From an uncultured Aminicenantes bacterium (GTDB lineage Bacteria > Acidobacteriota > Aminicenantia > UBA2199): a DNA stretch of 64,000 nucleotides. The notes beneath the pieces were generated by a model, which made no database searches, was not told the origin of the DNA, and saw nothing but the letters and a program-made list of their open reading frames with translations. Numbering within the stretch: the first letter of the stretch is position 1; each line of letters opens with the position of its first letter. Of the stretch, positions 23,517-40,086 are shown one piece after another. The stretch is taken from positions 1 to 64,000 of the forward strand of contig CBDAFS010000040.1 of the NCBI GenBank assembly GCA_965195285.1, written 5' to 3'. Position numbers and translations under genes: made by a program.

Positions 23517-24000
23517 TGCTTTCCTCCTTCTTTTTGAGTTCATAATAGTTCAGAATAAATTTCAGCCCCAAACCGATCAAGACCAACGGCCATAAACGGA
23601 TAACCTGTCCATAGGAGAGAACATCAAAGTTGATTAACAGAAAAACAATACCCAAAATCAACACCACCACCGAACCGGCTAATGACATTTCTTCTTTATT
23701 GTTTCCATTTTCCCGTCCGGCTTTAAACCTGACAATTCTGGCATTATTATAACTGTCGATTATCTGAAAGATGTAGAATCCGGCGATAAGAAGCCCAAAC
23801 ACAACTGTCTCTAACTCTTGGGATCCATATTCACTGGAATAAACTTCCAGGACAATCAGCATGGCAAAAATAATCATATAGGCAATCCCTTTGAGAAAAT
23901 TCCCAATATAAAAAAAGCCGGCGCCGGGAAAAATAGCAGAGATGATGGCTGCCAGTGCCGGGCTTTTCCTGTTTACAGTCTCAACATTTTTTTCACCCAT
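23509..24000 (-). CDS. Membrane protein, TM2-like N-terminus plus LiaF-like C-terminal helices
   Basis: KSPALAAIISAIFPGAGFFY...RLWPLVLIGLG; SD GGAGG. Confidence 0.7.
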   Translation of the reverse strand: MGEKNVETVNRKSPALAAIISAIFPGAGFFYIGNFLKGIAYMIIFAMLIVLEVYSSEYGSQELETVVFGLLIAGFYIFQIIDSYNNARIVRFKAGRENGNNKEEMSLAGSVVVLILGIVFLLINFDVLSYGQVIRLWPLVLIGLGLKFILNYYELKKKEESNE

Positions 24001-24505
24001 TTTTTCCTCCTTTGTTATTTGAGCTCTTCTTTTCATCTATCTGTCTGAATTCCGATTCCTTTTTAAAAAAACCAAAATCCAAAGAAACACCTTTCCTCGA
24101 TTCTTTAATGGTTTCGATAAATGCCCCCGCTTCAACCACAAATTTTTCAACCCTGGCCACAGCCAGATGAAGGGTTTTGTTGGCCGTGGGATAGATATTG
24201 GTGAAATAGAAAAGGTTTAAAAATAAAACCACAGTGCCAATGGCAGCAGCGATCCACTTTAAATATATGCCACGGCTCTCTTCTTCCTGGTCCGCATCAA
24301 AAATATTGTAAAGCCTGTTTTTCAGGAAAAACGGAATCTCCTCTTCCAGTTCCGGATAAACATATCTCATATGTTCGATTTTCTCTTTCAACTCCCGGCA
24401 TTTCGGGCATTGCTTCAAATGAATGGAAATCTCTTTTCTCTGGCTATTTTCCAGTTCATTTTCAATAAAACCCGATATGAGACTCTCTACCTTTTTGCAG
24501 TCCAT
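23993..24505 (-). CDS. Zinc-finger (zf-HC2) anti-sigma factor
   Basis: MDCKK...HLKQCPKC (HxxxCxxC) and one TM; follows an ECF sigma. Confidence 0.85.
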   Translation of the reverse strand: MDCKKVESLISGFIENELENSQRKEISIHLKQCPKCRELKEKIEHMRYVYPELEEEIPFFLKNRLYNIFDADQEEESRGIYLKWIAAAIGTVVLFLNLFYFTNIYPTANKTLHLAVARVEKFVVEAGAFIETIKESRKGVSLDFGFFKKESEFRQIDEKKSSNNKGGKNG

Positions 24506-24506
24506 A

Positions 24507-25043
24507 TCAATTCCCCTCATCCATGAATGTCTTGGCCAGTTTTACCCGGGCCCGGTTGATTCTGGATTTAATGGTCCCCAGAGGAAGATTGAGCGTATCG
24601 GCAATTTCCTGATAGGAATATTCCTGGATGTCCCTCATGATCAAAAGCAATTTCAAGTCCGGATCCAGAATGGATATTTTATTCCTAAGATTGGTCACAT
24701 CACAATCTTTGACAGCCTTATCTTCCGGTGTATGGTCTGTTCTTATCAGATCGTCGCTCAGCTCGATTCGTCTGGCGCTTCGTTTTGTCTTTCGCCAGTG
24801 GTCGATACAGTGATTGGTGGAGATCTTAACCAGCCAGGATTTAAAACTTTTCTCCTCCCTGAATTTGTCAATATTGTTATAAACCTTGAGGAAAACATCC
24901 TGGGTAATATCCTCGGCATCCTCCCGGTTGGCAAAAAAATTCAGGGCCAGATTATAAATGGTTTTGGCATACCGATCAACAATCATGTTCCAAGCCTCAT
25001 AATCTCCATTTTTACACCGTTGAACAATCTCACCAATGTTCAT
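24507..25043 (-). CDS. ECF RNA polymerase sigma factor
   Basis: DAEDITQD, FKSWLVKISTNHCID, YQEIA...GTIKSRINRAR. Confidence 0.93.
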   Translation of the reverse strand: MNIGEIVQRCKNGDYEAWNMIVDRYAKTIYNLALNFFANREDAEDITQDVFLKVYNNIDKFREEKSFKSWLVKISTNHCIDHWRKTKRSARRIELSDDLIRTDHTPEDKAVKDCDVTNLRNKISILDPDLKLLLIMRDIQEYSYQEIADTLNLPLGTIKSRINRARVKLAKTFMDEGN

Positions 25044-25179: not shown

Positions 25180-27597
25180 TTACAAATCCCCATATTTCTC
25201 CAACCGTTCTTCATAAATCTCCTTTGCATTCGCCACGATTTTTTGAAACCGGGGATCATCCCGCAAATTGTCATAGTGAGGATTATTAATCAAGTATAGA
25301 TAATTATATGCATCTTTACTTTTCTTCAGGGACTTTTGCATCATTGCAATGGCCTTGTCCTGCATTCCCAGCAATGAATAGACACGGGATGATTGCGTTT
25401 TTTGGGCAAGCGCTTTCTTCTTCTCCCCTCTGGCGGCAAACAAAATGGCCTTTTGTGCTTTAGTAGATCTAAAACGCATCTTTCCTTTCTCCAATTTGTC
25501 TATATACTCTTCGGCTTTATCATAATTTTTCACCCTCAGGTAATGTATGCAGTACAGCCTGATCAAATTGGTTTGACCAGGGAAAAATTCGGATGCTTTT
25601 TTGAGATACCGGACAGATTGGCTATAATTTCTCAAATAAATGAAGCTTCTGGCTATGGTGGTATAAGGGAGCAGGAGAAGCGGGTCAAGCTCGATTGCTC
25701 TGGTGCAGTATTTTAGGGCCTGGTGATATAAACCCATCCGATGATAATAAAAGCCTGTTGTAAAATTCAATATTGCACTATTGGGAGCTTTTTGCAGGGC
25801 TTTTTTAAATTCAATATATGCCAGGTCATATTTTTTCATCATGGCATAACTGTGGCCAATACCCCCCCAATAACCTTCAGATGAATCCGGAGCCAATTCT
25901 CTTGCTTTTCTGGCGAATTTTAAGGCCAGATTAAAATAATTAATATCTCGTGTCACAATATAATGGTTTCCATAGGCCCAGGATAATCCGCTGTAGGCCC
26001 TGGCATAATCGGGATCAATCTCCAGAGCTTTTTTAAACATCTTCACAACAGCATCTAAGACCTTATCGTTCATATCCAGGTAAAACCGGTTGTTGAATAT
26101 ATGCATGGCCTTGAGGTAATATTCATAGGCCCGGGTGTTTTTTGTTTGCCCCTCCATCATTGATTTTAAAGCTTCCGGTGTAAATGTCACCTTCAGGGAC
26201 TGGGCAATGGCTTTGGCCACTTCGTCCTGAACAGTAAAAATATCTTCCAGCTTGCGGTCATAATTTTTGGCCCACAGGTGGGCATCATCCGCCACCCTTA
26301 TCAACTGGGCGGTAATCCGGATCCGGTTTTTATCCTTTCTCACGCTGCCCTCCAGCACATTTTCCACTGCCAGCTGCCGGCCGATTTCCATAATGCTTTT
26401 TTCACTGTTTTTAAATCTCATCACCGAAGTGCGGGAAATCACCTTCAGATCATTGATAGTAGTAAGCTTGGTGATGATCTCCTCGGTCATTCCGTCGCAG
26501 AAATATTCCTGCTCTTTGTCGGCACTTATATTGGTGAAAGGGAGAACCGCAATGGAGTTTTTCCATTTTGAGTCAAAGATTTTTCCTTCGATAGATTTTT
26601 CCTGAACAACTGTTTTCTCAGGTTTTGGTTTTTCCTTTAAAAACAAATAACCGGCCACAACAAGAACAGCCAGTAATATGAAACCCATCCATATGAATGG
26701 GTTTTGGGGGAGTCCTCTTTTTTTCACCACAACACCTGTTTTTGGATCTTTGGTTGCTTTTTCCGATTTTTTTATTAAATTCTTCAAATCAACTATCATA
26801 TCGGCAACATTCTGATATCTGGCAGAAATATCTTTGTTCAATGTTTTATTGACGATTCTCTCCAGTTCCCGGGGAACGCCTGTGCGCAATCCGGTGATCG
26901 GCTCGGGTTCTTCATTCATGATGGCGTACATCACAGCCTGTTCATATTCACCTTTAAAAGGTAACTGCCCGGTAATCATTTCGTAAAGTAATACCCCCAG
27001 GGACCAGATGTCGGAACGGTGATCGACTTTGTCTCCAGAGGCCTGCTCGGGTGACATGTAGGCAACGGTTCCCAGGGTGGTTCCCTCTTTGGTAAGCTTG
27101 GTAATCCCTCTCAGTTTGGCCAGGCCGAAATCGAGGATTTTAACCACCCCTTCTTCGGTTATAATAATATTGGCTGATTTGATGTCACGGTGGACGATCT
27201 CTTTTTGATGGGCTTTGTTGAGGCCTTCTGCTATCTGGATGGTGATATCAATGGCATCATTTAGAGGCAAGGGCGAACCGCCATTCGCCCCTACACCTGA
27301 TATTTTCTCATTTAATGTTTGCCCTTCATAGTATGCCATGGCAATGAACATCCGGCCCTCTTCGGTTTCATCGATTTCAAAAATATTACAGATATTGGGA
27401 TGGTCCAGGGCAGCAGCTGCCTTGGCCTCATGGATGAAGCGTTTTTTTTCTTCTTTATTGATGTTGATATGAGTGGGAAGAAATTTTAAGGCCACAGTTC
27501 TATCCAGCTTCGTATCCAGCGCCTTGTAAACCACTCCCATACCCCCGGCACCAATCTCCTGAAGTATTTTGTAGTGTGATATCGTTTTTCCAATCAT
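25180..27597 (-). CDS. Hanks-type Ser/Thr protein kinase with TM, TolB-N/CsgG-like domain and TPRs
   Basis: GAGGMGVVY, ALK, HRDIKSAN, DFGLA, YMSPE; SIAVLPF...LEGSVR; TPR helices. Confidence 0.92.
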   Translation of the reverse strand: MIGKTISHYKILQEIGAGGMGVVYKALDTKLDRTVALKFLPTHININKEEKKRFIHEAKAAAALDHPNICNIFEIDETEEGRMFIAMAYYEGQTLNEKISGVGANGGSPLPLNDAIDITIQIAEGLNKAHQKEIVHRDIKSANIIITEEGVVKILDFGLAKLRGITKLTKEGTTLGTVAYMSPEQASGDKVDHRSDIWSLGVLLYEMITGQLPFKGEYEQAVMYAIMNEEPEPITGLRTGVPRELERIVNKTLNKDISARYQNVADMIVDLKNLIKKSEKATKDPKTGVVVKKRGLPQNPFIWMGFILLAVLVVAGYLFLKEKPKPEKTVVQEKSIEGKIFDSKWKNSIAVLPFTNISADKEQEYFCDGMTEEIITKLTTINDLKVISRTSVMRFKNSEKSIMEIGRQLAVENVLEGSVRKDKNRIRITAQLIRVADDAHLWAKNYDRKLEDIFTVQDEVAKAIAQSLKVTFTPEALKSMMEGQTKNTRAYEYYLKAMHIFNNRFYLDMNDKVLDAVVKMFKKALEIDPDYARAYSGLSWAYGNHYIVTRDINYFNLALKFARKARELAPDSSEGYWGGIGHSYAMMKKYDLAYIEFKKALQKAPNSAILNFTTGFYYHRMGLYHQALKYCTRAIELDPLLLLPYTTIARSFIYLRNYSQSVRYLKKASEFFPGQTNLIRLYCIHYLRVKNYDKAEEYIDKLEKGKMRFRSTKAQKAILFAARGEKKKALAQKTQSSRVYSLLGMQDKAIAMMQKSLKKSKDAYNYLYLINNPHYDNLRDDPRFQKIVANAKEIYEERLEKYGDL
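27271..27294 (-). repeat. GTAG-type REP-like palindrome embedded in frame in the kinase gene
   Basis: Minus strand GTAG-GGGCGAA-TGGCGG-TTCGCCC, encoding VGANGGSP. Confidence 0.7.
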
Positions 27598-27954: not shown

Positions 27955-28293
27955 ATGAAAATTGAGAGAAGAAAAAAAAGTGGGGTAGTGATTTTGGATC
28001 TACAGGGGAAAATACTGACCGGAGACGCCATTACCGAAATACGTGTCGCCATCAACAACCTGGTTAAAGAGAATGAAACCAAAGTGGTATTGAACTTTTC
28101 CGATGTGCCCTATTTGGATTCTACCGGATTGGGTGAAATCGTCAGATCTTTCACCTCCATCAAAAAAATCGACGGCACGGTGAAAATACTCAATTTAACC
28201 AGCCGGGTAAAGGATTTGATGACCATCACCAAACTCATTACCGTATTTGAATGCTTTGAAGATGAGGAGAAAGCAATCAACAGTTTTGGTTAG
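27955..28293 (+). CDS. STAS-domain anti-sigma factor antagonist (RsbV/SpoIIAA-like)
   Basis: VVLNFSDVPYLDSTGLG with phosphoacceptor Ser; SD AAGGAG. Confidence 0.9.
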   Translation: MKIERRKKSGVVILDLQGKILTGDAITEIRVAINNLVKENETKVVLNFSDVPYLDSTGLGEIVRSFTSIKKIDGTVKILNLTSRVKDLMTITKLITVFECFEDEEKAINSFG

Positions 28294-28398: not shown

Positions 28399-29703
28399 TT
28401 ATATATTTCTTTTGATGACAATCAGGGTTATATCGTCAGCCTGGGGCAAATCACCGGTATGTAGCCGAACCGAATGTAAAATTTTTTCTAAAATATTCTG
28501 GGCCGAATTTTCGCGAGTTTTTTCAACCACTTCAATCAACTTTTCCTCACCGAATTCCTCTTCACGGCTATTAAATGCTTCGGTGATTCCATCCGAATAC
28601 AGGATGAAAAGATCATCCTGGGATAATGATATTTGCTCCTCATGAAAGCAAAATGACTCCAGGCATCCCAGCACAATACCATCTGACTCCAGGCGGAATG
28701 GACTTTTCTCCCTGGAAAATAAAATCGGGTAATTATGACCCGCATTTGAATACTTCAATTGATGGGACAGCACATCCAAAATCCCATAGAAAAGGGTGGC
28801 AAATTTTTCCGGCCCGGAATTCTGGAACATATGAAGATTGGAATGTTCAAGACAGGCACTGGAGGAGGCATTCAATAAGGTCTGACTCCGGATGGTTGCC
28901 TGAAGATTGGCCATCAACAATGCTGCCGGCATTCCCTTGCCCGACACATCACCAAGACAAAAAGCCAGCTGATGGTTGTTCATGGGAATAAAGTCAAAGT
29001 AATCGCCGCCTACATCTTTAGCTGGAATACTCTTGCCGGCAATGTCATACCCATCAATCGCCGGAGCCTGAGTGGGAAGTAGATTCATCTGAATCTCATA
29101 AGCCAGTCTTAATTCCTCCTGCATGCGAATCAGAGATTGTTCCTCTTCCAGCAAACGGGCATTCTCAATGACCTGGGCCGACTGGGTGGCAATAATTTCC
29201 AGCAAACGGCTGCCCTTCTGAGTAAAGCCCAGATCAGATTGGGAATTGAACAGGGCAATCAAACCGATCATTCGCCCTTTTTGCTTTAAAGGAACCGCCA
29301 GCAACGATTGGATGGAAAAAGTCTCCTTTCCCCGTTTTAAAAACCGGTTATCCTCCTGAAAGTCATTGATAACCAATGCTTTTCTGTTTTTCAACATCCA
29401 GCCCGATAGCTGGGAATCCAAACGGTAGGGCAACCGGAGTGATATGGTATCCCCCCTCCGGGCCACGGTTTGAAAGGGTTTTTCTTCTGTTTTTTCATCC
29501 AGCAGCATAATGGCTCCCTGCTCCACCTCCATATGCTTCAGGCATTTTTGAATGATCAGGTCCAGAATACGGTCCAGTGATAAGGTTGAACTGATGGCTA
29601 CGGCAATCTCATTCAGCATCGACAATTCTTCAACTGCCCGGCGTAATTGATTGATTTCCCCTTGCAATTTCTGAATCTGGATGATATCTTTTCCGGGATT
29701 CAT
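28399..29703 (-). CDS. GAF plus SpoIIE/PP2C phosphatase (RsbU-like)
   Basis: GAF (SLLAVPL); VGGDYFD, GDVSGKG, NAGH, YSDG, DDIT. Confidence 0.92.
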   Translation of the reverse strand: MNPGKDIIQIQKLQGEINQLRRAVEELSMLNEIAVAISSTLSLDRILDLIIQKCLKHMEVEQGAIMLLDEKTEEKPFQTVARRGDTISLRLPYRLDSQLSGWMLKNRKALVINDFQEDNRFLKRGKETFSIQSLLAVPLKQKGRMIGLIALFNSQSDLGFTQKGSRLLEIIATQSAQVIENARLLEEEQSLIRMQEELRLAYEIQMNLLPTQAPAIDGYDIAGKSIPAKDVGGDYFDFIPMNNHQLAFCLGDVSGKGMPAALLMANLQATIRSQTLLNASSSACLEHSNLHMFQNSGPEKFATLFYGILDVLSHQLKYSNAGHNYPILFSREKSPFRLESDGIVLGCLESFCFHEEQISLSQDDLFILYSDGITEAFNSREEEFGEEKLIEVVEKTRENSAQNILEKILHSVRLHTGDLPQADDITLIVIKRNI

Positions 29704-29818: not shown

Positions 29819-30877
29819 TTACCTGCGCCTTTTCAAAATATTGTATCCGGAATGGGAATGAACATGCCCACCCAACATATGGATTTGCCATAAATCCTGA
29901 CTCTTCACGTGCAGAAACGGGGCCAGTATCCGTTTTCCGGTTTTACCGATATTCAGTTCAAGTTGCTTCAATTCCATGAGTTTATTTTTTACTGCATCAT
30001 CCTGAGCCACTTTGAAACCGGCCTCATGCATCAACAGCGTACCTTTTGCCTTCAGGGCCAGTTCCACTGAAATCTGCAGATAACACAGCATATCTGCCAG
30101 AACCTCTCCGGGCACCCGGTTTTTCAGGGAAACCAGATATTGACCGATCCTGGATTCCAGTACTGCCCCGGACCGGATCATCTGAAGTAATTCCACATCA
30201 GATACGAAACCCACATCCAGCCACTTCTGGAGCAACTTTTCGCTGCGTTCAAAGACAATAATGAGGGCCAGCGGCAGAATGATTAAAATCACTACGGTCG
30301 AGAGCAATGGGTTAAGCAAAAAATGGTTGAAAACAGAATGGATGGCCATGGCCATTCCCAGCCCGGGTAAGTAGTGATAGAGTTTTTCCACCTGTCGACG
30401 TTCTATAAAATTTTTAGAAAAAATCCCCACGATTGCAGTCGTTCCACCATGCATAATGGCTGTGCCGAATCCCCGTATGATCCAGAGCAAAAGATTGGGA
30501 TCTCCCAGGGTATAGAGATAATGAATGTTTTCAACTGCTGCAAATCCGGCACCAATGGAAAACCCAAAGATCGCTGCATCGACCATAAATCCAATTCGCT
30601 TGGTCTTGAGCAAATAAATTAGGTAAAGTGCTTTAAAAAATTCTTCCAGAACGGGCGCCAGATAACGACTGAATTGAAGCAGGCTGATTTGAAATGTCCT
30701 CAACAGGAATCCGTTCAAAATCAGGCAAAAAACCGCAACCAGGCCGCCCACTCCAATGGCCACCAATACGGAACGTAATTTCAACAGTTTGTAACTGTCC
30801 AGAAAAATCAGGGTAATCAAAAAGGCAAAAACCGGTAATAAACTGACAATAACCTTCACCACTACCAGCATGGTCAC
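29819..30877 (-). CDS. PrsW-family intramembrane glutamic/metalloprotease with a C-terminal soluble extension
   Basis: About 7 TMs; LEEFFK (EExxK), GFAAVEN, AIMHG and AIHSVFN motifs. Confidence 0.85.
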   Translation of the reverse strand: MTMLVVVKVIVSLLPVFAFLITLIFLDSYKLLKLRSVLVAIGVGGLVAVFCLILNGFLLRTFQISLLQFSRYLAPVLEEFFKALYLIYLLKTKRIGFMVDAAIFGFSIGAGFAAVENIHYLYTLGDPNLLLWIIRGFGTAIMHGGTTAIVGIFSKNFIERRQVEKLYHYLPGLGMAMAIHSVFNHFLLNPLLSTVVILIILPLALIIVFERSEKLLQKWLDVGFVSDVELLQMIRSGAVLESRIGQYLVSLKNRVPGEVLADMLCYLQISVELALKAKGTLLMHEAGFKVAQDDAVKNKLMELKQLELNIGKTGKRILAPFLHVKSQDLWQIHMLGGHVHSHSGYNILKRRR

Positions 30878-30884
30878 TGGCTTG

Positions 30885-33857
30885 TTAAAGAATTTTCAAC
30901 GATATCATCCACTCATCCGTATCATCCTGATCCGCTTCAAAAGCCCGGGCATAACCCAGGGAAAGGGTGATCTGATGATTTGATAGAATCATGAAACGAA
31001 TATCAATTTGAAGACCGATATCCAGCAATTCCCTCCGATAAGCTTCATCATCCATGTTGGTCACTAAAGCGGTTGAAAAGACTGAAATAGAAGCCCAGTT
31101 GGTATAAAAGGATGAAAAACCCAGCCGCCTGAACAAGATGGGTGGAAGCGTCCATTCCAACATCAATTTGCCATAGTTGGTTCCCCCGACTCCATTCAGG
31201 TCAATACCCGGGAAACTGTAATATTTTCGGTACCGGCTGAAATCCTGGTGGTCAATCCAGTTGTTGCCAAAACCTCCGAAATAAAAATTGGCAAACGATT
31301 CTTCCCGATCCCCCCAGGCATAACCCAGGGAACCCCGAAGCCAGATAGCCGAATGGTGAAGGGGCAGGGGAAAACCCAGATCGAGATTGGTATATACCCG
31401 GGGGAAAAATTGACTATCGGCATAAAAAGCGGTCAGGTAGGTTTCCCATAAAAAACCCTTTTCATAATCCACTGCTCCCAGGGATGCTCTTAAATTTTTG
31501 TAATTGAGATTTAAGCTCAAGTAATAGAAATCAGTGAAAGTGGTTTCAACATTCTGAAATTGGGGCATCTCTTCCAGCCCGAAATAACCGGCCAGTTTAA
31601 CCCCCAGGTCCAAAATTCTGGGTTCATCAAATATCAGACTTTTTTGATACAGCAATTCTATTGAATCTCCCTTACGGCTGGTTTTGGTAGGGCCGAACAG
31701 ATCATAGAAATCAGCTTTGTTATGGGAGGCACTTAATTTCCAGTTGGAAATCCCCAGATTGAGACCGAGATGCCATCGTTCATACTGAGTAAGATCAGCA
31801 TCCGGAGTGTAAGAGACGGTAAAATCCAGGGTATTCAGGGGAATAGAGTCAGAGAGATTGAAACGGACACCATAGGCCAGGTAATTCTTGTACCCTTCAA
31901 CAACCGGGTATACAGATCTGAATTTAAAGTCCTTCAGAATATGGTATTTGCCTCTATAGGTAGTGCAGGACTCCAGGTCTACAATTGAAGGTGCTGGCGC
32001 CTGCCAATCCTTGAGCTGAGGATGGTTGTCCAAAACGGTTTGGCCCAGAAATTGAATGGATTTTACGGTTTCAAGGGGTTTGTTTTCAATGATAACCGGG
32101 ATAAAGCCGCTCGATGTGTAGCGAAAAGCCAGCACCGATTCATCTGAAATCGGGACCGGCCTGAACAAACCGGTTTCACAATTACTGATAATGTGAATAT
32201 CATCTTTATCCAGATCATAACGGTAAATATTGGACACTCCAGAATAGTAAGAGGAACCCCAAAGATGTTTTCCGTCCGGGGAAAAAACAAAATTGGCCGG
32301 GGAAAAATTTCCAAAATCGTAAAGCGTTTCATATTCAGGTTCTCCGTCCATCATGGTTTGGGTATCCATTTTAATCAATAACTGTTTTCCGGTCACACTG
32401 GTAAGCGCTCCGATGATCTTTTTTCCGTCCGGCGAGATATCAATATCATAAAGATCAACCCCATAAGGCCAGGAAAACATCTGATTCCACTCCCGATAGG
32501 GATAGGGAATTCGCACCAGGGTTGAGATGCCCAGATAATGCCGAACCCCCCAGAGGGATCGATCGGCCCGATTAAAGGCCAGATCGCCCACCCGGCAATC
32601 TTTCATCAGTATGGTTGACCGCTTGCTTTTCAGATCTACTTTTTTCAAATCACGCCAGTAGCTATTATCAGTGGTATAGAAAAGAGTGGCTGAATCAGGA
32701 TCATAGGCCAGTGAGGTCACAAAGAAGAGGTCCGGCCCCTTGAGGTTACAAATCGTCTTCATTTTCCCTGAACGAATATTCATGGCAGCTATATGGGCCA
32801 CCTGGCCCGGGTAGTTCACCCCAACATAGATTTTCTCCTCCCGGGTATCATAAAATGCCCTGGATACATACCCCAAGCGCTTTTCGGTAATCACCTTCTG
32901 AGAAGAGTAGGGGACCTGTCCAAGCCGTTGCAGGTTTTCTAACTGATATTGCTTTTCCCACTGGATCCATTCCGACCAGGCTTCATTCAGGGATAAACCA
33001 TAGGTTTTTTTAAACTGTTTGGAAAAGTAGGCCTTGCTATCCCTTGATCGTGAAACCCATTTGATGACACTTTCGGGACCATAGCGGTTGGCCAGGTAAC
33101 TGAAAAACCGGGTGCCGTACAGATAGGCATTCACACCCACCTGAAAATTCTTCTTGGTGGCTTCGGACTGTAATCCCACCTGGTCATGCAAATCCACCTG
33201 CTCATGAATCAAGCTTCTAAAGGCCATTTCATCGTAGGCTCCCAGCGCCCTCCCCAATCCGCCGGTCATCCAGGTCTCCATGAATACCGCAATCCCTTCG
33301 TGAAACCATCTGGGGGCAAAATCCCGTGGTGAAGTTAAATAACCGTACAATAATGACAAAGGATTATCGGCTGTGGGTGCCACTTTTCCAAAAAATATTT
33401 TTCGATAAAATTTGTCCGATTTGGTGGCCTGATCGCTGGCCAGCACATGAACCAGTTCATGATTCATCATCCAATTCATCCGTTCGTTTCCCAGTATGAT
33501 CTCAAAAACATAATTAAAAGGGGCAATGGACACAAACATCCGGTTGTTGGGTACAGCTGAGGTTCCGGCATTACCAAAATCAGAAAAATCATGAAGAACA
33601 ACCGTAATTTTTTCCGTGGGTTTGTAATCAAAGATTTTCATATGCTGGGCCAGTGAATTCTCAAAACATCGGGCCACATGGGATACCAAATAGGCATGGG
33701 CTTCCCCGAAATAGATCAAGCGAAGGTTTTTTGTTTCAATGGATTGAAAACGGGAGTAAACAGGATGGCTAATAAAAAAAATCGAAAGAAAAATAAATAT
33801 AATCAAAACGCTGATTTTTTTAATTTTCTCCTCCTCTTTAGAAAAGCACAATACCAT
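30885..33857 (-). CDS. Secreted/outer-membrane protein: gluzincin-type Zn peptidase, TolB-like beta-propeller and probable C-terminal beta-barrel
   Basis: Signal peptide; NHELVH plus PRWFHEGIA; two SPDGK propeller motifs; alternating beta-strands at the C-terminus. Real start may be ATT 33824. Confidence 0.7.
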   Translation of the reverse strand: MVLCFSKEEEKIKKISVLIIFIFLSIFFISHPVYSRFQSIETKNLRLIYFGEAHAYLVSHVARCFENSLAQHMKIFDYKPTEKITVVLHDFSDFGNAGTSAVPNNRMFVSIAPFNYVFEIILGNERMNWMMNHELVHVLASDQATKSDKFYRKIFFGKVAPTADNPLSLLYGYLTSPRDFAPRWFHEGIAVFMETWMTGGLGRALGAYDEMAFRSLIHEQVDLHDQVGLQSEATKKNFQVGVNAYLYGTRFFSYLANRYGPESVIKWVSRSRDSKAYFSKQFKKTYGLSLNEAWSEWIQWEKQYQLENLQRLGQVPYSSQKVITEKRLGYVSRAFYDTREEKIYVGVNYPGQVAHIAAMNIRSGKMKTICNLKGPDLFFVTSLAYDPDSATLFYTTDNSYWRDLKKVDLKSKRSTILMKDCRVGDLAFNRADRSLWGVRHYLGISTLVRIPYPYREWNQMFSWPYGVDLYDIDISPDGKKIIGALTSVTGKQLLIKMDTQTMMDGEPEYETLYDFGNFSPANFVFSPDGKHLWGSSYYSGVSNIYRYDLDKDDIHIISNCETGLFRPVPISDESVLAFRYTSSGFIPVIIENKPLETVKSIQFLGQTVLDNHPQLKDWQAPAPSIVDLESCTTYRGKYHILKDFKFRSVYPVVEGYKNYLAYGVRFNLSDSIPLNTLDFTVSYTPDADLTQYERWHLGLNLGISNWKLSASHNKADFYDLFGPTKTSRKGDSIELLYQKSLIFDEPRILDLGVKLAGYFGLEEMPQFQNVETTFTDFYYLSLNLNYKNLRASLGAVDYEKGFLWETYLTAFYADSQFFPRVYTNLDLGFPLPLHHSAIWLRGSLGYAWGDREESFANFYFGGFGNNWIDHQDFSRYRKYYSFPGIDLNGVGGTNYGKLMLEWTLPPILFRRLGFSSFYTNWASISVFSTALVTNMDDEAYRRELLDIGLQIDIRFMILSNHQITLSLGYARAFEADQDDTDEWMISLKIL

Positions 33858-33889
33858 TTCCTCCCCAGTTGGGGAGAAAATGGTATTGT
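33848..33889 (-). terminator. 19-bp stem-loop between the repeat gene and the OM-protein gene (terminator, attenuator or mRNA stabiliser)
   Basis: mRNA ACAAUACCAUUUUCUCCCC-AACU-GGGGAGGAAAUGGUAUUGU (one G-U pair), followed by GCUUUUCU. Confidence 0.75.
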
Positions 33890-33903
33890 ATCGATTGATC
33901 GTT

Positions 33904-36243
33904 TTATTTGATCAGTGCTTCTCTGGACAGTGCTTTTCTGAAACTGTCGTGACTGATGGCCCTTCTGAATGAATCCTGGGAGATGGCCTTGAGAAAAGGC
34001 TCGCTGAACAGGGCCCGTCTCAAAACCTCATGTGACATGGCCTTTCGCATGGATTCACTGAAAAATGCCCTTCTGAGCGGCTCCCTGGACAGGGCACTCC
34101 GCATGGTATCACTGAAAAATGCCTCTCTCAAAACTCCACTGGACAAAGCATTTCTCATGGTTTCACTGAAGAAAGCCTGACGTAAAATCCCATTGCCAAT
34201 GGCTTTCCTGAAAGTCTCACTGGACAAAGCTCTGAGCAGTGTTTTATTCTCAAATGCTTTCCTTAAACCGGCATCCCGGGAGATGGCCTTCAAGAATTGA
34301 CCGTCTCCGGCTATGGCCTTTCGGAACACTTCATGATCGGCAACCGCTTTCACAAAAGCTTGATTCGAGAATGCTTTTCTCAGCGGTTCACTGAAGAGTG
34401 CTCTTTTCAGGGGTTGGTCCATCAGGGCTTTGCGAAAAGCCTCCTGGTTCAGCGCTCTCATAAAGGGCCCCGAAAACATGGCTTTTCTCATTGCCTGGTC
34501 GCCGATAGCCTTTCTAAATGATTCTCCAAACAGGATATTCCGCATGGATTCCATTTCAATTGCCCGGCGGAAAGACTTACAGGCCAGTGCCCGGAGTAAG
34601 GTTTTATTGCCCAGAGCCCGGCGTAAGGTTTCATCGCTTCCCATGGCCCGGATCAATCCGTCATGTTTGGATATGGCTTTTCTCAGGGCAACCTCACTGG
34701 TCAGGGCCCGGCGGAAAACATCACTGTTAAAGGCTTTGGCCAAGGTCTCGCTGAAAAAGGCTTTATGTAAAGCCTCATCCGCAAATGCCTTTCGACAGGC
34801 TTCACCAAACAGAGCTTTTCTTAAGGGTTGATCAGCCATTGCCCTTCTCATGGGTTGGCTGCACAGGGCTTTCAGCATGACCTCATTATTCAGGGCTTTG
34901 CGCAAGGCCGGATCATTGGCCATGGCTTTTTGCAACCCGTCATGTCCGGAAACAAAATTCCGCAATGCATTCTGATTACCCAGTGCTTTGCGGAAAGATG
35001 CATCCATCATGGCCTTTTTCAAGGGCTCTCCGAATAGGGCTTTTCTTAAATTTTCTCTGGCCAGTGCTTCCTTGAAAGGTCCGTGAAAAAGGGCTTTTCT
35101 GAATTCATCCGCTTCCAGAGCCCTACGCAGGCTTTCATGGGAAAATGCCTTGAGAAAGATTTCGCTATTGACAGCCTTCGTGAGATTATCATCCCTGACC
35201 ATGGCCTTTTTCAAGACCTCATTTAAAGCAATGGCCTTACGAAATGCCTCACGACCGGACATGGCCTTACGAAATGCCTCTCCTGATAAGGCCTCTCTGA
35301 CCGGCTTACTGAAAATGGCTTTACGTAACACATCATCAGCCATGGCCCGATAAAAGGGTTCGCTGAATAAGGCCTCCCTCAATATATCATGAGACAGAGC
35401 CTTCATCAGGGTTTCATTGGAAAGGGCTTTGCGAAGGGATTCGTCATGCAAGGCCTTTCGCACGGAATGGCTGGACAACGCTTTCAATAAAACATCCTGG
35501 TCAAATGCCCGGCGCAATTCCGGGTCTTTGGAGAAAGCTTTTTGTAAGCTTTCATCACCGGAGATGGCTTTGCGCAGCGCTTCATGATTTCCCAACGCCT
35601 GGCGAAACACATCTCTTGCCAATGCTGCCTTAAGGGGTTCGCAAAAAAGGGCTTTTCTCAACACCTCATCGGACAAAGCCTGGCGGAAAGGTTCATTAAA
35701 AATGGCCTTGCGCAATTCATCATTAAAAATTGCCATGCGAAAAGACTCACTGTTCATGGCTTTGCGAAATCCCTCATCAGACATGGCCTTTCTGAAGCTG
35801 TTACTCATCATGGCCCGGCGCATACTCTTATGAGAAACGGCTCTCCGCAACGCTTCTCCAAACAGAGCCTTCCTCACCGTTTCATTTTCCATGGCCGCAA
35901 TAAAATCCTTACTGTTGATCAACGCCTGGATTTGATCATTCTGCAACAGGGTTTGAGTTTGGGAATCACTGAGAACCACATCTGCTGGACTCAGCTGATC
36001 AGCTTGATACCGTTGGGCTTGCTCCACACCACCGATTGTCGCACTGGTTTCTTGTCCATCAGGCCAGGGGAAAAAAAGTCCAAAATAGCCAATTAAAATG
36101 ATGGCTGCTACAGCGCCTCCCAATAACCACTTCCTGGTACTTGATTTACTCATTTCGTCCTCCTTAATACTGATTTTTAATTTATATTGAATCTCATCCA
36201 CCTTGCTTCGATAATACTTTTTGAGGCTTTTCTCAGGTCTCAT
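33904..36243 (-). CDS. Single-TM protein with ~72 tandem 9/10-aa amphipathic helical repeats; possible anti-sigma or exported structural subunit
   Basis: TM WLLGGAVAAIILIGYFGLFF, then a ~55-aa non-repeat segment, then (F/L/M)-R-K-A-(L/I/F/M) repeats; SD-led ATGs at both 36243 and 36153. Confidence 0.85.
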   Translation of the reverse strand: MRPEKSLKKYYRSKVDEIQYKLKISIKEDEMSKSSTRKWLLGGAVAAIILIGYFGLFFPWPDGQETSATIGGVEQAQRYQADQLSPADVVLSDSQTQTLLQNDQIQALINSKDFIAAMENETVRKALFGEALRRAVSHKSMRRAMMSNSFRKAMSDEGFRKAMNSESFRMAIFNDELRKAIFNEPFRQALSDEVLRKALFCEPLKAALARDVFRQALGNHEALRKAISGDESLQKAFSKDPELRRAFDQDVLLKALSSHSVRKALHDESLRKALSNETLMKALSHDILREALFSEPFYRAMADDVLRKAIFSKPVREALSGEAFRKAMSGREAFRKAIALNEVLKKAMVRDDNLTKAVNSEIFLKAFSHESLRRALEADEFRKALFHGPFKEALARENLRKALFGEPLKKAMMDASFRKALGNQNALRNFVSGHDGLQKAMANDPALRKALNNEVMLKALCSQPMRRAMADQPLRKALFGEACRKAFADEALHKAFFSETLAKAFNSDVFRRALTSEVALRKAISKHDGLIRAMGSDETLRRALGNKTLLRALACKSFRRAIEMESMRNILFGESFRKAIGDQAMRKAMFSGPFMRALNQEAFRKALMDQPLKRALFSEPLRKAFSNQAFVKAVADHEVFRKAIAGDGQFLKAISRDAGLRKAFENKTLLRALSSETFRKAIGNGILRQAFFSETMRNALSSGVLREAFFSDTMRSALSREPLRRAFFSESMRKAMSHEVLRRALFSEPFLKAISQDSFRRAISHDSFRKALSREALIK
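33907..35904 (-). repeat. Coding tandem repeat array, 27/30-nt period, diverged at DNA level
   Basis: Hand parse gives 57 nonamers plus 15 decamers; one exact 20-nt duplicate ATGGCCTTACGAAATGCCTC at 35231 and 35261. Confidence 0.9.
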
Positions 36244-36265
36244 GTTGAAGCTCCTTTCGATTATA

Positions 36266-36292
36266 TAGACGAGTGAATAAAAAAAATGGTGA
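36266..36292 (-). promoter_or_regulatory. Putative ECF-type promoter for the repeat-protein operon
   Basis: TCACC-16 nt-CGTCTA between the sigma stop and the SD of ATG 36243. Confidence 0.5.
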
Positions 36293-36300
36293 AAAAAAGA

Positions 36301-36864
36301 TTAAAAACTCAAATCTTTACTCAGGTTTTTTCTGATCAGGCGGACCTTGGATTTGACCGTATTGACATTGAGGTTCAAAATCCGGCTGATGTCTTTATAT
36401 CTCATGTTCTCAAAGAACCGTAAATAGGAAATCTCTCTTTCCGTCTCATCCAGCTTACTCAGACAATGATCAATTTTCTCCAGCAGATCCTGTTCGATGA
36501 CAATCTTTTCCGGTGTTCGCAAATCCAGAACTTTTTCAATTTCGATTCCACCGGTATTAATAGAATTTTCTTTTCTGCTTTTCAAAAAATCAATACAGTG
36601 ATTTCTGGCAATTCGATAAATCCAGGCTTTAAATGAATGCAAAGGATTGAAGGTGTTCAGGTTTTTATAAATTTTAATCATGACTTCCTGAAAGATATCA
36701 TCAAAGGAAGGATGATTAAAGGGGATCAGATTGGAAATATAAAAACCAATTTTCTGATGGTAATGATACCAAATGAACTGAAATAATTTAGATTTTTCCT
36801 TTTCTCCGAAAGAAGAGCCGATGAAGACATAAAATCGTTCATAAAACTCTTGAACTTTATCCAT
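36301..36864 (-). CDS. ECF RNA polymerase sigma factor
   Basis: DDIFQEVMIK, FKAWIYRIARNHCID, YKDISRIL...NTVKSKV. Confidence 0.9.
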   Translation of the reverse strand: MDKVQEFYERFYVFIGSSFGEKEKSKLFQFIWYHYHQKIGFYISNLIPFNHPSFDDIFQEVMIKIYKNLNTFNPLHSFKAWIYRIARNHCIDFLKSRKENSINTGGIEIEKVLDLRTPEKIVIEQDLLEKIDHCLSKLDETEREISYLRFFENMRYKDISRILNLNVNTVKSKVRLIRKNLSKDLSF

Positions 36865-37027
36865 GAAGGTTTAGGTTAGAATTGAGTGAAAGGAATCCTG
36901 GTTTCCCACCTTTTTCATCCTCTCAGACATCTTGCCTGTTAGAAACTATAATCATTGGCAAAAAAAAAGTCAAGCTTTTCATATTAATTATTTATTCGAC
37001 TTTTGCTATAATGACATTGTCATTTAT

Positions 37028-37444
37028 ATGCAGGTAAAAAAAAGTATAAAACTGAAAAACAGTTTTTCAGAAATAAAAAAACTGAATGAATTTCTCAGGA
37101 AATTTCTTCAGCATCATTCCCTTAACATTCTCAACCATCAGGACATTCAGCTTTCTCTGGAAGAGATATTTAACAATATTTTATTATATGCCTATCAAGA
37201 CAGGCAGATCCATGAAATCAGCTTTCAATTCAATTTGGAAAACAAGGTCTTGTGGATTTGCATTGAAGATGATGGCATTCCTTTCAATCTGCTCAAGGTA
37301 AAGGAACCCGAATTAACCACACCTCTTCAGGAACGACAGGTGGGAGGTTTGGGTATTCATTTGATTCGGTCTTTAATGGATGAGATCTCTTATCAAAGAA
37401 AAAACAATAAAAATATATTAATCATAAAAAAAGATATAAATTGA
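37028..37444 (+). CDS. Anti-sigma factor/serine kinase (RsbW-like HATPase)
   Basis: LEEIFNNILLYAY, EDDGIPF, GGLGIHLI; start moved to MQVKK. Confidence 0.88.
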   Translation: MQVKKSIKLKNSFSEIKKLNEFLRKFLQHHSLNILNHQDIQLSLEEIFNNILLYAYQDRQIHEISFQFNLENKVLWICIEDDGIPFNLLKVKEPELTTPLQERQVGGLGIHLIRSLMDEISYQRKNNKNILIIKKDIN

Positions 37445-37459: not shown

Positions 37460-37798
37460 ATGCAAATAAAAGAAGAAAAAATCGGGTCAGTACTTGTATT
37501 ATCTGTTTCCGGCAGAGTGGAAATGCTCACCTCACCCCAGCTGAAAGAAAATATTGTCAACCACATCAATATCGGAGAACATCAGCTGCTATTCGATCTC
37601 TCCGAGCTTGATTACATCAGCAGCCCGGGCCTGGGTATACTGCTGTATGCAGCCAAATTACTACAGGAAAAAAAGGGAAAAATGGACTTATGCGCTTTGA
37701 AACCCCATATTTTTGAAGTTTTTAAAATCTGCGGTTTTGACAAGGTTCTCCCCATTTTTCAGACCCGGGAGGAAGCCCTCAAGGCATTTGACCGGTAA
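37460..37798 (+). CDS. STAS-domain anti-sigma factor antagonist
   Basis: FDLSELDYISSPGLG; follows the RsbW-like gene. Confidence 0.9.
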   Translation: MQIKEEKIGSVLVLSVSGRVEMLTSPQLKENIVNHINIGEHQLLFDLSELDYISSPGLGILLYAAKLLQEKKGKMDLCALKPHIFEVFKICGFDKVLPIFQTREEALKAFDR

Positions 37799-37809: not shown

Positions 37810-40086
37810 TCAGGTTTTTATGTTGATGAAAAAGTAGAATGAAACAGCCCCAAATAGAAACAAAGGTGCGAAGGCGGATAAAAAGGGCGGCAGGATTCCG
37901 CTGGAACCCAGGGCACTGAATATCCCGATGGCACCCCAGAAAATCATGGAAACCCCCACCGCGATTCCGATGCCGTACAGGGTTCCCTTGTTACCCATCA
38001 AAAATGAGAAGGGAATGGCAATGAACACCATGATCAAACTGGCAAAGGGAAAGGCAACTTTGTAGTAGAGTTTGGCCCTGAATTTGGTGGGATCCGATTT
38101 GTTCTTTTCCAAATATTGAATATAATTATTCAATTTGGCAATATTCATAAATTCAGAATACGATATTTTTTTGGTGAATATAGACCGTCCCTCTTTAACA
38201 ACTATTTGCTTTTGATCAAATTCCTTGAAATCATGCGGAGTATTTTGTTTAAATGTTCGCTCAAAACCGTCTCTGAGAATCAGCTGGTTTGGCCCTGACC
38301 AGGCTGCAGTTTTGGCCACGATTCTTCTGGAAATTTCAAATTGCTCATTAAAACTGATGGCAGTAAATTTCACAAACCGATTGGTTCTCCGGTTATAAAA
38401 TTGATAGTGGAACAATTCATTTTGACCGGCTATGATCCAGTTTTTTCTCAATTCAATATCGGTTTTCCGGGTTATATTCCGAATGATATTCAAGGTTTCC
38501 ATGGCATTTTTATTGTACTGGGGGGTCAGGTTTTCCTGAATAAAAAAGGCCAGCAGCGAAACCACCAGTCCGAAAAAAAATGCCGGCAAGGTCAATCGAT
38601 GCAGGCCGATTCCACTGACTTGAACCGCAATGATTTCATTATTCTTGCTCATCAATGAAAAGGTTAACAAAACCGCTGTTAAAATAGAGACCGGGAAGGT
38701 AAAGCTGATAAATTCAGGGATATTGTAAAACACATAGTTGAGTAAAAAATAAAATTCCACCTTGTTTTTGATGATCTCATCAATAAGATCGACAATGGTC
38801 AAAATAGAAAAAATGAACATTAGAGAGAGAAGAATCAGTGTAAAAACCAGAGTCAACCGTTTGAGGACATAAATATCCAGAATCTTAAACAGTCTGGATT
38901 TTGCCTTTTTTACTTTTAAAACAAAGAGAACTTTCCTCCTTTTTAAAAACGCTTTTTCTTTAAACCGATTAAAAAAGGAAAGCATGTCCTCCCAGTCGAT
39001 GGATTTTTCTTTTGAAGTAAAAAAGTACAGACCAATCCCTATCAAAATCAGGAACATGTTGGGGAACCATATGCCCGCAAACGGCGAAATGATCTTCTTC
39101 AGAATCATGTTTCTAGCCGTGGTAATAATGGTGTAATAGAGGAAAATGATACCCAGTGAAATAATGAAACCGCTGACTTTCCCCCCTTTTTTGGTTGAAA
39201 TGCCCAGAGACAAAGCCAGGAACCCAAAGGCCAGGCACGTAAATGGCAGGGCAAATTTGTTATGAAATTCAATTTGAATACTCAAATCATCGGGTTCATA
39301 TTTCAGGGTTTCCAGGAGATGGGGAAGGGTTTGCTGGGTGCTCCTGCGGGTTTGCTTGATATTAATCAACTCAGGAATATATTCTCTGAGGAATTTAAAA
39401 CTCTGGGAATAGCTCTGTTTGGGTTCTTTTTTTTTAAATCCCTGAATCACTGCATCGCTGAGGGCGATATGGCTTTCTCTTGTTCCATATTTTTGAATGA
39501 ATTTTCCCCTCTTGGCTATGATCATCTTGTCATCATTGGCCTGCTTCATTGAATAGAGGAATATGTCTTTCCATTCTCCGCTTGGATTGTCAATTTCATT
39601 GAAATAAAGCACATAAAACGGAAACCCCGTATAAAACGTTTTTGGTTTTATATTGGAAACCGCCTTGGACAGAATCACCTGGGTGTATAGCCGGGAAAAC
39701 CTGTAGTTACTCTCCGGGGCCACATACATGATCAACCAGGAAGAGAACAACCAGGTCAGTACGGTAAAAATCAAAACCGGTTTATAAACCCGCAGATTGT
39801 TTACTCCCATGGTCCGGTAAGCCACAATCTCATAGTCAGTGCTCATCCGACTTAAACCGGCCAATACCCCCATTAGAGTTGCCATGGGTATGGTAAAAGA
39901 CAGAAAATCTGGCAGAAGATACAGCAATATCTTCAAAATGGTCCAAGTGGAAGCACTTCTGGAAATCAGCACATTGGACAAAACCAGAATCTGATTAATG
40001 AGCAGGGTGAAGGTATACACCAGAAGCCCGATACTGAAGGGCGAAATGATTTCCTTCAACACATACCGATCAAAGGACTTGAGCAT
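37810..40086 (-). CDS. Fused LptF-LptG LPS export permease
   Basis: Two YjgP/YjgQ modules (FDRYVLKE...EIVA; LDIYVLKR...NNEIIA) in one 758-aa ORF. Confidence 0.88.
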   Translation of the reverse strand: MLKSFDRYVLKEIISPFSIGLLVYTFTLLINQILVLSNVLISRSASTWTILKILLYLLPDFLSFTIPMATLMGVLAGLSRMSTDYEIVAYRTMGVNNLRVYKPVLIFTVLTWLFSSWLIMYVAPESNYRFSRLYTQVILSKAVSNIKPKTFYTGFPFYVLYFNEIDNPSGEWKDIFLYSMKQANDDKMIIAKRGKFIQKYGTRESHIALSDAVIQGFKKKEPKQSYSQSFKFLREYIPELINIKQTRRSTQQTLPHLLETLKYEPDDLSIQIEFHNKFALPFTCLAFGFLALSLGISTKKGGKVSGFIISLGIIFLYYTIITTARNMILKKIISPFAGIWFPNMFLILIGIGLYFFTSKEKSIDWEDMLSFFNRFKEKAFLKRRKVLFVLKVKKAKSRLFKILDIYVLKRLTLVFTLILLSLMFIFSILTIVDLIDEIIKNKVEFYFLLNYVFYNIPEFISFTFPVSILTAVLLTFSLMSKNNEIIAVQVSGIGLHRLTLPAFFFGLVVSLLAFFIQENLTPQYNKNAMETLNIIRNITRKTDIELRKNWIIAGQNELFHYQFYNRRTNRFVKFTAISFNEQFEISRRIVAKTAAWSGPNQLILRDGFERTFKQNTPHDFKEFDQKQIVVKEGRSIFTKKISYSEFMNIAKLNNYIQYLEKNKSDPTKFRAKLYYKVAFPFASLIMVFIAIPFSFLMGNKGTLYGIGIAVGVSMIFWGAIGIFSALGSSGILPPFLSAFAPLFLFGAVSFYFFINIKT

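Follow-up and report, generated by a model that had tools for sequence, protein, structure and literature searches.

The SigW-RsiW-PrsW-RasP pathway of Bacillus subtilis combines a sigma factor of the extracytoplasmic function (ECF) type with a single-pass holder in the membrane, the protease PrsW with its EE and His motifs, and a site-2 protease. FecA-FecR-FecI and other sets with a TonB-dependent transducer associate an outer-membrane (OM) barrel with an inner-membrane anti-sigma factor, which reaches into the periplasm, and with an ECF sigma factor. Class II anti-sigma factors of the CnrY type place a short cytoplasmic peptide before one transmembrane (TM) helix; partner switching, which in the RsbU/RsbW/RsbV case involves a HATPase_c_2 kinase, a STAS protein and a PP2C phosphatase, is linked to an ECF sigma factor in the Bordetella btr locus. 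An operon of four genes that resembles each of these systems in part lies in a stretch of 64,000 nucleotides, here called the window, from an uncultured Aminicenantes bacterium (Acidobacteriota; Aminicenantia; UBA2199; GenBank assembly GCA_965195285.1, contig CBDAFS010000040.1, positions 1 to 64,000 of the forward strand). It encodes an ECF sigma factor, a membrane-anchored repeat protein, a predicted peptidase-propeller-barrel protein of 990 amino acids (aa) and a PrsW protease. A literature search, which did not cover supplementary tables, found no published description of this gene set. In the main text of Casas-Pastor et al. 2021, 'PrsW' occurs 0 times, the group tables being in supplements outside the search (PMC7826278); toxin-fused PrsW is discussed by Zhang et al. 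2012 (PMC3482391, available in part).

This operon is the form that a widespread bacterial envelope gene set takes in one lineage. All are on the minus strand, as are the features below unless stated otherwise: the open reading frames (ORFs) of the sigma factor (36301..36864, 187 aa), the repeat protein (33904..36243, 779 aa), the barrel-peptidase protein (30885..33857, 990 aa) and PrsW (29819..30877, 352 aa) follow each other with gaps of 57, 46 and 7 nucleotides, in agreement with the layout given in the original prediction. The parts of a SigW/RsiW-type pathway of regulated intramembrane proteolysis are present as genes: beside the ECF sigma factor, the predicted single-pass holder and a PrsW with EE and His motifs, the genome encodes an RseP-type site-2 protease (C39; PF02163, 6.1e-66). 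In contrast to the B. subtilis pathway, the host has an outer membrane, and the module adds an Omp85-type peptidase-propeller protein; the ectodomain of the holder is a long nonapeptide repeat, a partner-switching set is linked, and the anti-sigma domain is replaced in the window by a tail of ~37 residues. PrsW itself carries an extra cytoplasmic domain of ~130 aa and is not the B. subtilis equivalog (NF033739, 33.5 bits against a cut-off of 225).

Similar combinations of likeness and difference apply to the other systems. With the FecA-FecR-FecI sets, the locus shares an OM barrel, an inner-membrane anti-sigma factor (here a candidate) reaching into the periplasm, an ECF sigma factor and, presumably, proteolytic release, but the barrel is Omp85-like rather than a TonB-dependent receptor and the first protease would be PrsW; neither a TonB box nor a FecR domain was found by Pfam. 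HATPase_c_2 kinase, STAS and PP2C genes lie beside the sigma gene as in RsbU/RsbW/RsbV partner switching; the kinase/STAS pair, in contrast, also stays with trios of repeat, barrel and PrsW genes that have no sigma gene. As in CnrY-type class II anti-sigma factors, a short peptide precedes one TM segment and is predicted to lie between sigma regions 2 and 4; here, however, it is a single predicted helix of ~20 residues on an ectodomain of ~700 aa, and the likeness is one of predicted arrangement. Two-partner secretion (TPS; TpsA/TpsB) is a likeness by analogy only; no TPS or POTRA matches were found by Pfam. The WD40-Omp85 subfamily resembles the 990-aa protein in its Omp85-type barrel and in a TolB-like propeller that takes the place of POTRA domains (Heinz and Lithgow 2014, PMC4104836). 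In the available part of that article, neither an HExxH peptidase domain nor a connection with PrsW, with a repeat protein or with a sigma factor is described; the barrel of the window, moreover, has no Pfam Omp85 match. RseP takes part in the release step of cell-surface signalling (PMC8144685, available in part). Apparently new here are the variant without anti-sigma domain, the conserved tail with a passing complex prediction, a shared GT motif after the TM segment and a position-conserved hairpin.

The original prediction staked the system on synteny in other genomes, and two independent anchors find the set conserved across phyla. With the barrel protein as anchor and one genome scanned per species, 80 loci were obtained, whose barrel proteins are 44-55% identical to that of the window. 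They are labelled as KSB1, Ignavibacteria, Zixibacteria, Eisenbacteria, Latescibacterota, Krumholzibacteriia, Balneolaceae, Rhodothermia, other Bacteroidota, Chlorobiaceae, Calditrichota, Fibrobacteraceae, Marinimicrobia, Gemmatimonadota, many Acidobacteriota and three Gammaproteobacteria. A PrsW homolog lies within 6 kb of the barrel gene in all 73 loci with at least 1200 nucleotides downstream, which come from 14 or more phylum-level labels, and is its immediate neighbour in 63 of them. The repeat protein, as detected with that of the window, is present in 50 of the 64 loci with at least 1500 nucleotides upstream; among the other 14, some hold proteins with other repeat units (e.g. L029). 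Among the 52 loci with at least 3.5 kb upstream, a canonical sigma factor is found in 43 and an anti-sigma N-domain in 41; in 17 of these 41, which lack a separate anti-sigma gene, the domain is fused to the repeat protein. The ~260-aa genes between sigma and repeat gene gave no Pfam family in 12/12 cases. The second anchor, a profile of the TM segment and the juxtamembrane domain built on 46 sequences, corresponds to the check proposed with the original prediction, a hidden Markov model of the non-repeat segment. When 201 genomes of the phylum were sampled, it matched 20; both the barrel protein and PrsW are present in 17 of the 20 loci fetched outside the window's genome; of the other three, one is cut by a contig end and the two weakest matches are without barrel and PrsW.

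In the usual order, an RsbW-like kinase and a STAS gene are followed by the sigma factor, a single-pass anti-sigma factor of ~260 aa, the repeat protein, the barrel protein and PrsW. The window and the genomes G002, G008 and G214 have a derived order, in which the kinase/STAS pair is divergent, the sigma factor belongs to a divergent type and the repeat protein follows without an anti-sigma domain. The window is thus a derived, atypical variant without the usual anti-sigma domain. Other rearrangements occur within the Acidobacteriota: in L104-L106 and L112 (G113, G158, G056, G163), sigma and anti-sigma genes lie downstream of PrsW, the parts being kept and the order shuffled. In L117 (G082:C52, 3341-6310), two tandem repeat-type genes, each with a juxtamembrane domain, precede one barrel gene; the first has a Cys-containing anti-sigma-like N-domain, and the ectodomains are rich in Q, A and V without a clear 9-residue unit.

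The repeat protein starts with a cytoplasmic N-terminal tail that contains an LKKYY motif (residues 1-37, 36133..36243) and is a candidate minimal anti-sigma helix. A single TM segment follows (residues 38-61, 36061..36132; hydropathy scan), and then a non-repeat juxtamembrane domain, ...SATIGGVEQAQRYQADQ...DVVL...LLQND (35890..36060), delimited by the alignment of 46 sequences, which is a candidate PrsW site or recognition domain. The remainder consists of ~70 tandem nonapeptide units (33907..35889), net basic, with the consensus [S/F/N][S/D/N][E/D]x[L/F]RKA[L/F/I/M]; 38 of 62 anchor spacings are exactly 9 residues, each unit is a short amphipathic helix with many F, L, M and A residues, and their DNA has diverged from unit to unit. 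Repeat proteins of the module share the TM segment, a (Y)PP turn and the pattern GTIG...A.RYR..Q....DV.L.....Q..LQ.D; beyond this domain they consist of 9-residue units or multiples of 9 with taxon-dependent sequence, and their lengths range from 194 to 944 aa. A G[TS][IVLMA] motif stands 9-14 residues past the TM segment in 44 of 45 repeat proteins and 12-20 residues past it in 15 of 17 separate anti-sigma factors; it may be a PrsW site or recognition motif common to both. Database searches were of little help for the repeat protein: sequences in the Protein Data Bank (PDB) gave nothing meaningful, and a homolog search with residues 31-130 returned 341 candidates, 0 of them at E <= 1e-3. Pfam matches to CT0912-like_C, UBQLN1, GerD, STI1-HOP_DP, NblA, Med31 and others were set aside as compositional because none has an individually significant stretch.

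A profile of 17 module anti-sigma domains has no match in the window's operon, and in the window's genome only C14 and C7 match, weakly (E 6.4e-7 and 1.4e-6); the class I anti-sigma domain of the module is thus absent from the operon in both its separate ~260-aa form and its fused form. Instead, a tail of the pattern E..LKKYY..K opens the repeat protein in the window, G002, G008 and G214, four genomes that belong to three genera. In G008, tail and TM segment stand in different reading frames, and the barrel gene of this genome is also split (L013, G008:C3, 7724-10718 and 12300-12590); these apparent frameshifts (4 contigs, 73% completeness) may be assembly indels rather than signs of pseudogenes. 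For the window, a complex of the sigma factor (3-sequence alignment) with residues 1-40 of the repeat protein was predicted together with 3 controls. The median score is 0.65 (runs 0.00, 0.75 and 0.65) and that of the best control 0.00; the mark for such scores, roughly applicable to this pair, is reached by 58 of 80 solved complexes and by 2 of 110 mismatched pairs. The partner pLDDT (predicted local distance difference test) is 42-62, and the runs agree in at least 0% of contacts. Residues 3-24 of the tail are predicted to contact residues 36-58 and 127-185 of the sigma factor, in regions 2 and 4. The sigma factor is bound in this manner, between these two regions, in solved anti-sigma complexes as well. 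The prediction supports, short of proof, that the LKKYY tail binds the sigma factor there.

The sigma factor matches Sigma70_r2 (4.1e-13) and Sigma70_r4_2 (9.6e-13) of Pfam as well as the NCBIfam model sigma70-ECF (TIGR02937, 94.2 bits against a cut-off of 42.9); these matches place it in the ECF group (group 4) of the sigma-70 family, with regions 2 and 4 only, and it has an N-terminal extension. A maximum-likelihood tree unites 33 module sigma factors in one clade (support 100/99), in which no sigma factor of the window's genome is found; by its position in the tree, the window's sigma factor is a member of a lineage-specific clade and not of the canonical module clade. Another, ordinary ECF sigma factor is encoded at 24507-25043, followed by a zinc-type anti-sigma factor with an H..C..C motif (23993-24520); 3' of this pair are a small membrane protein and a DUF4097 'toastrack' protein (22168-23415). 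Assignment of orthology by profile score was abandoned in favour of the tree, as the module profile ranks this ordinary sigma factor above the operon's own.

The assignment of the last gene of the operon rests on Pfam family PF13367, which the 352-aa protein matches with 75.6 bits (cut-off 23.5); it is the only protein of the genome above this cut-off. The predicted intramembrane protease domain spans 30269..30775, and E78, E79, K82, E116, N117, H143, H180 and N184 are invariant in 23 aligned sequences. The cytoplasmic C-terminal domain of this PrsW subfamily (~130 aa, 29864..30262) is conserved in the same number of sequences. Its profile finds 671 representative clusters, and in the best 150 of these it forms the C-terminal end of proteins of PrsW length (~330-345 aa) or belongs to shorter proteins; an Atlas search with the domain was uninformative (best score 0.81).

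The 990-aa protein has no Pfam family. Its AlphaFold2 (AF2) model, for which 60 relatives were aligned, has high confidence (pLDDT 92.1, predicted template modelling score 0.89) and bears out the peptidase-propeller-barrel architecture that had been proposed for an OM protein. A signal-like helix (residues 5-36) precedes an alpha/beta domain resembling HExxH metallopeptidases (residues 37-312, 32922..33749), a TolB-like beta-propeller (residues 320-591, 32085..32900; AF2 and fold searches), a short helical linker (residues 604-643) and an Omp85-like OM barrel with 16 strands in the DSSP assignment of the model (residues 645-990, 30888..31925). HELVH comprises residues 133-137, and H133, E134, H137 and E187 are invariant in 60/60 aligned sequences, which include paralogs at 16-22% identity; E187 is a candidate third metal ligand. 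The Atlas clusters nearest to the peptidase region (residues 36-318, score 0.95) carry Peptidase_MA_2 or BSP, the former in 35-36% of the members of the clusters nearest to the domain. Peptidase_MA_2 itself is matched by one of five orthologs, at E 1e-3 and with 19.4 bits below the cut-off of 32.4; a profile of the domain has 0 matches among PDB sequences. For the propeller, the likeness to TolB is clear from structure (Foldseek E 6e-9; 1c5k_A in VIA, Z 22.5, root-mean-square deviation (rmsd) 3.0, 241 aligned residues), and a PDB sequence search with the whole protein gave only weak TolB matches.

For the barrel, a counterpart is BamA of Deinococcus (8xnb_B in VIA, Z 19.4, rmsd 4.5, 294 aligned), which is the only barrel among the 50 matches listed in the whole-model fold search, where propellers dominate. 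A long conserved loop (residues 848-893) lies between strands 11 and 12, at a position that we take to correspond to loop 6 of Omp85; with 16 strands and this loop, the modelled barrel has the features of an Omp85 barrel. In Pfam, Omp85_2 is weakly matched by the barrels of 29 of 53 relatives (best E 1e-4) and Omp85 by two (best 1.7e-5); the window's own barrel matches neither at E up to 10, and a barrel profile finds nothing significant among PDB sequences (BamA, E 9.4). POTRA domains have no Pfam match in the protein, and the model has the peptidase-like domain and the propeller in their place. In our reading, the protein is an Omp85-type barrel that lacks POTRA domains and carries a TolB-like propeller and a zinc peptidase of the MA type. 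N-terminal domains of Omp85 proteins are usually periplasmic; peptidase and propeller most likely face the periplasm. The family is large: 5572 proteins score at E <= 1e-5 among 8000 scored, and named members are mostly 'hypothetical'. Distant paralogs (~26% identity) occur in unrelated housekeeping contexts, e.g. next to panC/panD, without PrsW. The same genome holds a 1017-aa paralog (L018, G000:C6:669-3722; ~25% identity over the N-domain) with neither a PrsW nor a repeat gene nearby.

Between the repeat and the barrel gene, where a strong hairpin had been noted in the original prediction, 20 base pairs and a T-rich tail are found at 33890..33847, overlapping the annotated ATG of the barrel gene. 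The sister genome G002 has a compensatory change in the stem, and G008 has a different long hairpin at the same place. When the 130 nucleotides from the stop codon of the gene upstream of the barrel gene were folded and compared with shuffled sequences across loci, the median z was -3.24, and z < -2 was reached in 43 of 57 loci; in the controls this was the case at 4 of 74 junctions at the barrel-gene stop and at 3 of 75 mid-gene positions. The folding recurs by position, unlike that of the controls, and a structured element downstream of the repeat gene therefore belongs to the module; it may act in termination or attenuation. The true start of the 990-aa protein is uncertain: the annotated ATG forms part of the hairpin's 3' arm, and a strong Shine-Dalgarno-like GAGGAGGAG stands 3' of this codon (region 33840-33857). 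Judging from these signals, translation may in fact begin slightly further downstream, at a non-canonical codon. The promoter has to be viewed differently from the original prediction, which had called it ECF-like: the site that most resembles a promoter ahead of the sigma gene is of the sigma-70 type (TTGACT-17-TATAGT, 36973..36945, a candidate by a 10/12 consensus match only, kept in G002), and no conserved -35/-10 pair of the GGAAC/CGT (ECF) type was found in the alignment of three upstream regions. Parts of the sigma, repeat and barrel genes, together with the 3' end of PrsW, occur in RNA contigs of two libraries from a single study, which indicates presence only; no contig spans the hairpin, parts of the barrel and PrsW genes are uncovered, and neither an expression ranking nor termination can be deduced from them.

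Genes of a partner-switching set flank the operon; they were no part of the original prediction, which also did not include the Omp85-like nature of the barrel or the atypical status of the window. Divergent from the sigma gene, on the plus strand, are an RsbW-like serine kinase/anti-sigma factor (HATPase_c_2, 36932..37444, Pfam 1.7e-22) and a STAS anti-sigma-factor antagonist (37460..37798, 5.8e-20). Directly 3' of PrsW lies a gene for a GAF and SpoIIE/PP2C phosphatase (28399..29703, minus strand; SpoIIE 7.6e-48, GAF_2 2.1e-17), and beyond it another STAS-domain protein is encoded on the plus strand (27955..28293, 2.5e-17). By their domains, HATPase_c_2 kinase, STAS protein and PP2C phosphatase together make up a partner-switching gene set. 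All 41 loci with at least 5 kb upstream carry STAS, and 38 of them carry the RsbW-like kinase; a Pfam check of such neighbours confirmed the kinase in 8/8 and STAS in 12/13 cases. Among the 24 loci with at least 9 kb on both flanks, a SpoIIE/PP2C phosphatase homolog occurs in 10 and a Ser/Thr kinase in 7. In the window, such a kinase with one TM segment and TPR repeats (25180-27597, minus strand) is encoded downstream of the PP2C gene; L024, L026 and L047 hold several Ser/Thr kinases each.

These components could act together in a regulated proteolysis of the sigma-W kind that suits an envelope of two membranes: the repeat protein would be the anti-sigma factor, PrsW the first protease and RseP the second, the Omp85-peptidase protein a periplasmic gatekeeper or trimmer of the ectodomain, and the phospho-switch a second input. 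We consider this the best reading and give it about an even chance. The repeat protein would be anchored in the inner membrane, where its LKKYY helix, wedged between regions 2 and 4 of the sigma factor, would make it an anti-sigma factor. On the periplasmic side, the conserved juxtamembrane domain (SATIGG...RYQ...DVVL...LLQND) would be followed by ~70 short amphipathic helices. The 990-aa protein, its peptidase and propeller facing the periplasm, would bind or trim this ectodomain and thereby decide when PrsW cuts. PrsW would cut first, just outside the membrane, at or near the conserved juxtamembrane motif, and an RseP-type site-2 protease would then clear the stub and free the sigma factor. 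RsbW-like kinase, STAS protein and GAF-PP2C phosphatase may constitute a cytoplasmic phospho-switch that feeds into the sigma factor or into the C-terminal domain of PrsW, and the hairpin after the repeat gene may serve to produce more sigma factor and repeat protein than of the two proteases. Binding of the tail to the sigma factor has its support in the structural model only, whereas the cuts, the signal and the barrel protein's topology are our inference; trimming, sensing and export are all candidate roles of the barrel protein.

The role of the repeat protein as anti-sigma factor gains support from the fusion of the N-domain in 17 of the 52 testable loci and from the prediction for tail and sigma factor; both favour this part of the original prediction, in which a repeat rod was the ectodomain of an anti-sigma factor. 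The rod shape itself gains no support: the AF2 model of the repeat protein has 7-residue helices with 2-residue breaks, and because it is too uncertain (pLDDT 56.8, tertiary model unreliable), neither a fold search nor a claim about a rod is based on it. Besides this uncertainty, several observations weigh against proteolytic sigma control. Trios without a sigma gene exist (L103, L109 and seven barrel-anchored loci with long upstream flanks), and the core function therefore cannot be sigma control alone. Kinase and STAS gene are kept in L103 and in these seven barrel-anchored loci; because the RsbW/STAS pair stays with sigma-less loci, the phospho-switch may not act on the sigma factor, and its target may rather be the C-terminal domain of PrsW. 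In the maximum-likelihood tree, the window's sigma factor joins only the copies of G002 and G008 (100/100); the long branch on which it stands lies apart from the canonical clade. The window's PrsW is no equivalog of the B. subtilis enzyme. One of the three runs for tail and sigma factor scored 0.00 and the fold of the partner is uncertain; since sigma/anti-sigma complexes have already been solved, the pass may also partly reflect likeness to them. Finally, the strong divergence of the repeats between taxa would be expected of a structural or exported product more than of a specific sensor.

This divergence leads to a different view of the trio, in which the repeat protein is cargo: PrsW would free it from its signal-anchor, the propeller would recognise the juxtamembrane domain, the barrel would carry it to the surface and the peptidase would mature it there into a fibre, coat or peptides. 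By analogy, recognition of the juxtamembrane domain by the propeller would play the part of a TPS domain, and a fused anti-sigma domain or tail, where there is one, would couple secretion to transcription in a FlgM-like manner. Such an export function would explain a core of repeat protein, barrel and PrsW that persists without sigma and anti-sigma factor in L103, L109 and the seven other loci, and it is consistent with a conserved N-domain followed by fast-changing 9-residue units in proteins of such different lengths; a hairpin conserved in position would fit a product needed in excess of its machinery. The lack of POTRA and TPS-like domains by Pfam, the usually periplasmic location of Omp85 N-terminal domains and the linkage to ECF sigma factor (43/52), anti-sigma domain (41/52) and partner switch, which is more typical of signalling, speak against it. 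The Omp85 superfamily does include protein translocators such as TpsB and PlpD (PMC4104836, available in part), and PrsW domains have earlier been proposed as releasing peptidases in export (PMC3482391, likewise). On balance, export, the second model of the original prediction, gains some weight from the sigma-less trios and is the main rival, if a rather unlikely one. Equally built around the trio is a mixed scheme, which we regard as tentative and rather unlikely: a new envelope-spanning route of release, processing and perhaps export, in which the anti-sigma function, residing in a full domain in many phyla and in a 20-residue helix here, rides on the anchor of the cargo, the sigma factor reports release as in the FlgM case, and RsbW/STAS/PP2C gate PrsW via its C-terminal domain.

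Proteolytic sigma control also has to be weighed against biogenesis or quality control of the outer membrane. In that case the 990-aa protein would unite a BamA-like barrel, a BamB/TolB-like propeller and a BepA-like protease acting on misassembled envelope proteins; the anchored amphipathic repeat protein would be a periplasmic holdase or tether, and PrsW and the sigma factor would report failure as envelope stress. The structural match of the barrel to BamA, the weak Omp85_2 matches of 29 of 53 relatives, the closeness of the propeller to TolB and the F-, L-, M- and A-rich short amphipathic helices of the repeat units agree with such a role, as do the distant barrel paralogs in housekeeping contexts without PrsW and the comparison of WD40-Omp85 proteins to a BamA-BamB fusion by Heinz and Lithgow (PMC4104836, available in part). 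The chaperone-like STI1/DP matches of the repeat proteins are, however, compositional, and a module as patchy as this one, with the juxtamembrane domain in 20 of 201 genomes of the phylum, is ill-suited to a core biogenesis factor, so that we think quality control an improbable function. A sigma-less trio might, lastly, have received the window's sigma factor by a later insertion, unrelated in function and controlled by transcription or by the RsbW-like kinase only. That no sigma factor of the genome falls into the canonical clade, that the operon lacks an anti-sigma domain, that sigma-less trios exist and that the RsbW-like kinase and STAS gene lie divergently upstream would all be in line with this. 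The same type of sigma gene, however, stands directly upstream of a repeat gene with the N-terminal tail in four genomes of three genera, the gap between the two genes is 57 nucleotides, and the predicted complex of tail and sigma factor passed its controls; an unrelated insertion is, in our estimation, very unlikely.

If regulated proteolysis with the repeat protein as anti-sigma factor is the correct reading, sigma-W-like proteolytic signalling with an OM partner would exist in didermic bacteria of many little-studied phyla, among them Acidobacteriota, Gemmatimonadota, Bacteroidota and relatives, KSB1, Zixibacteria, Eisenbacteria and others; no PrsW signalling route with such a partner has been described so far. 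POTRA-less propeller-Omp85 proteins would gain their first testable functional context, and the module offers a possible cytoplasmic control of the intramembrane protease PrsW. Because the canonical sigma/anti-sigma pair is missing in the window and a divergent sigma factor is paired with a tail of ~20 residues, the sigma-binding part may be exchangeable, and the tail would be a very small candidate anti-sigma element.

The remaining window is ordinary chromosome, with glnA, nadA, lpxB, dnaK, metG, nusA, infB, truB, dapF and an HtrA-like protease among its genes. Neither promoter-like sites (21 against 14.7 +/- 3.4) nor terminator-like sites (7 against 9.3 +/- 2.6) show a clear enrichment over the region. 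Adjoining the module is a 758-aa ORF (37810-40086, minus strand), an apparent fusion of LptF and LptG with two full LptF_LptG matches, in which TIGR04407 covers residues 5-355 and TIGR04408 residues 402-754.

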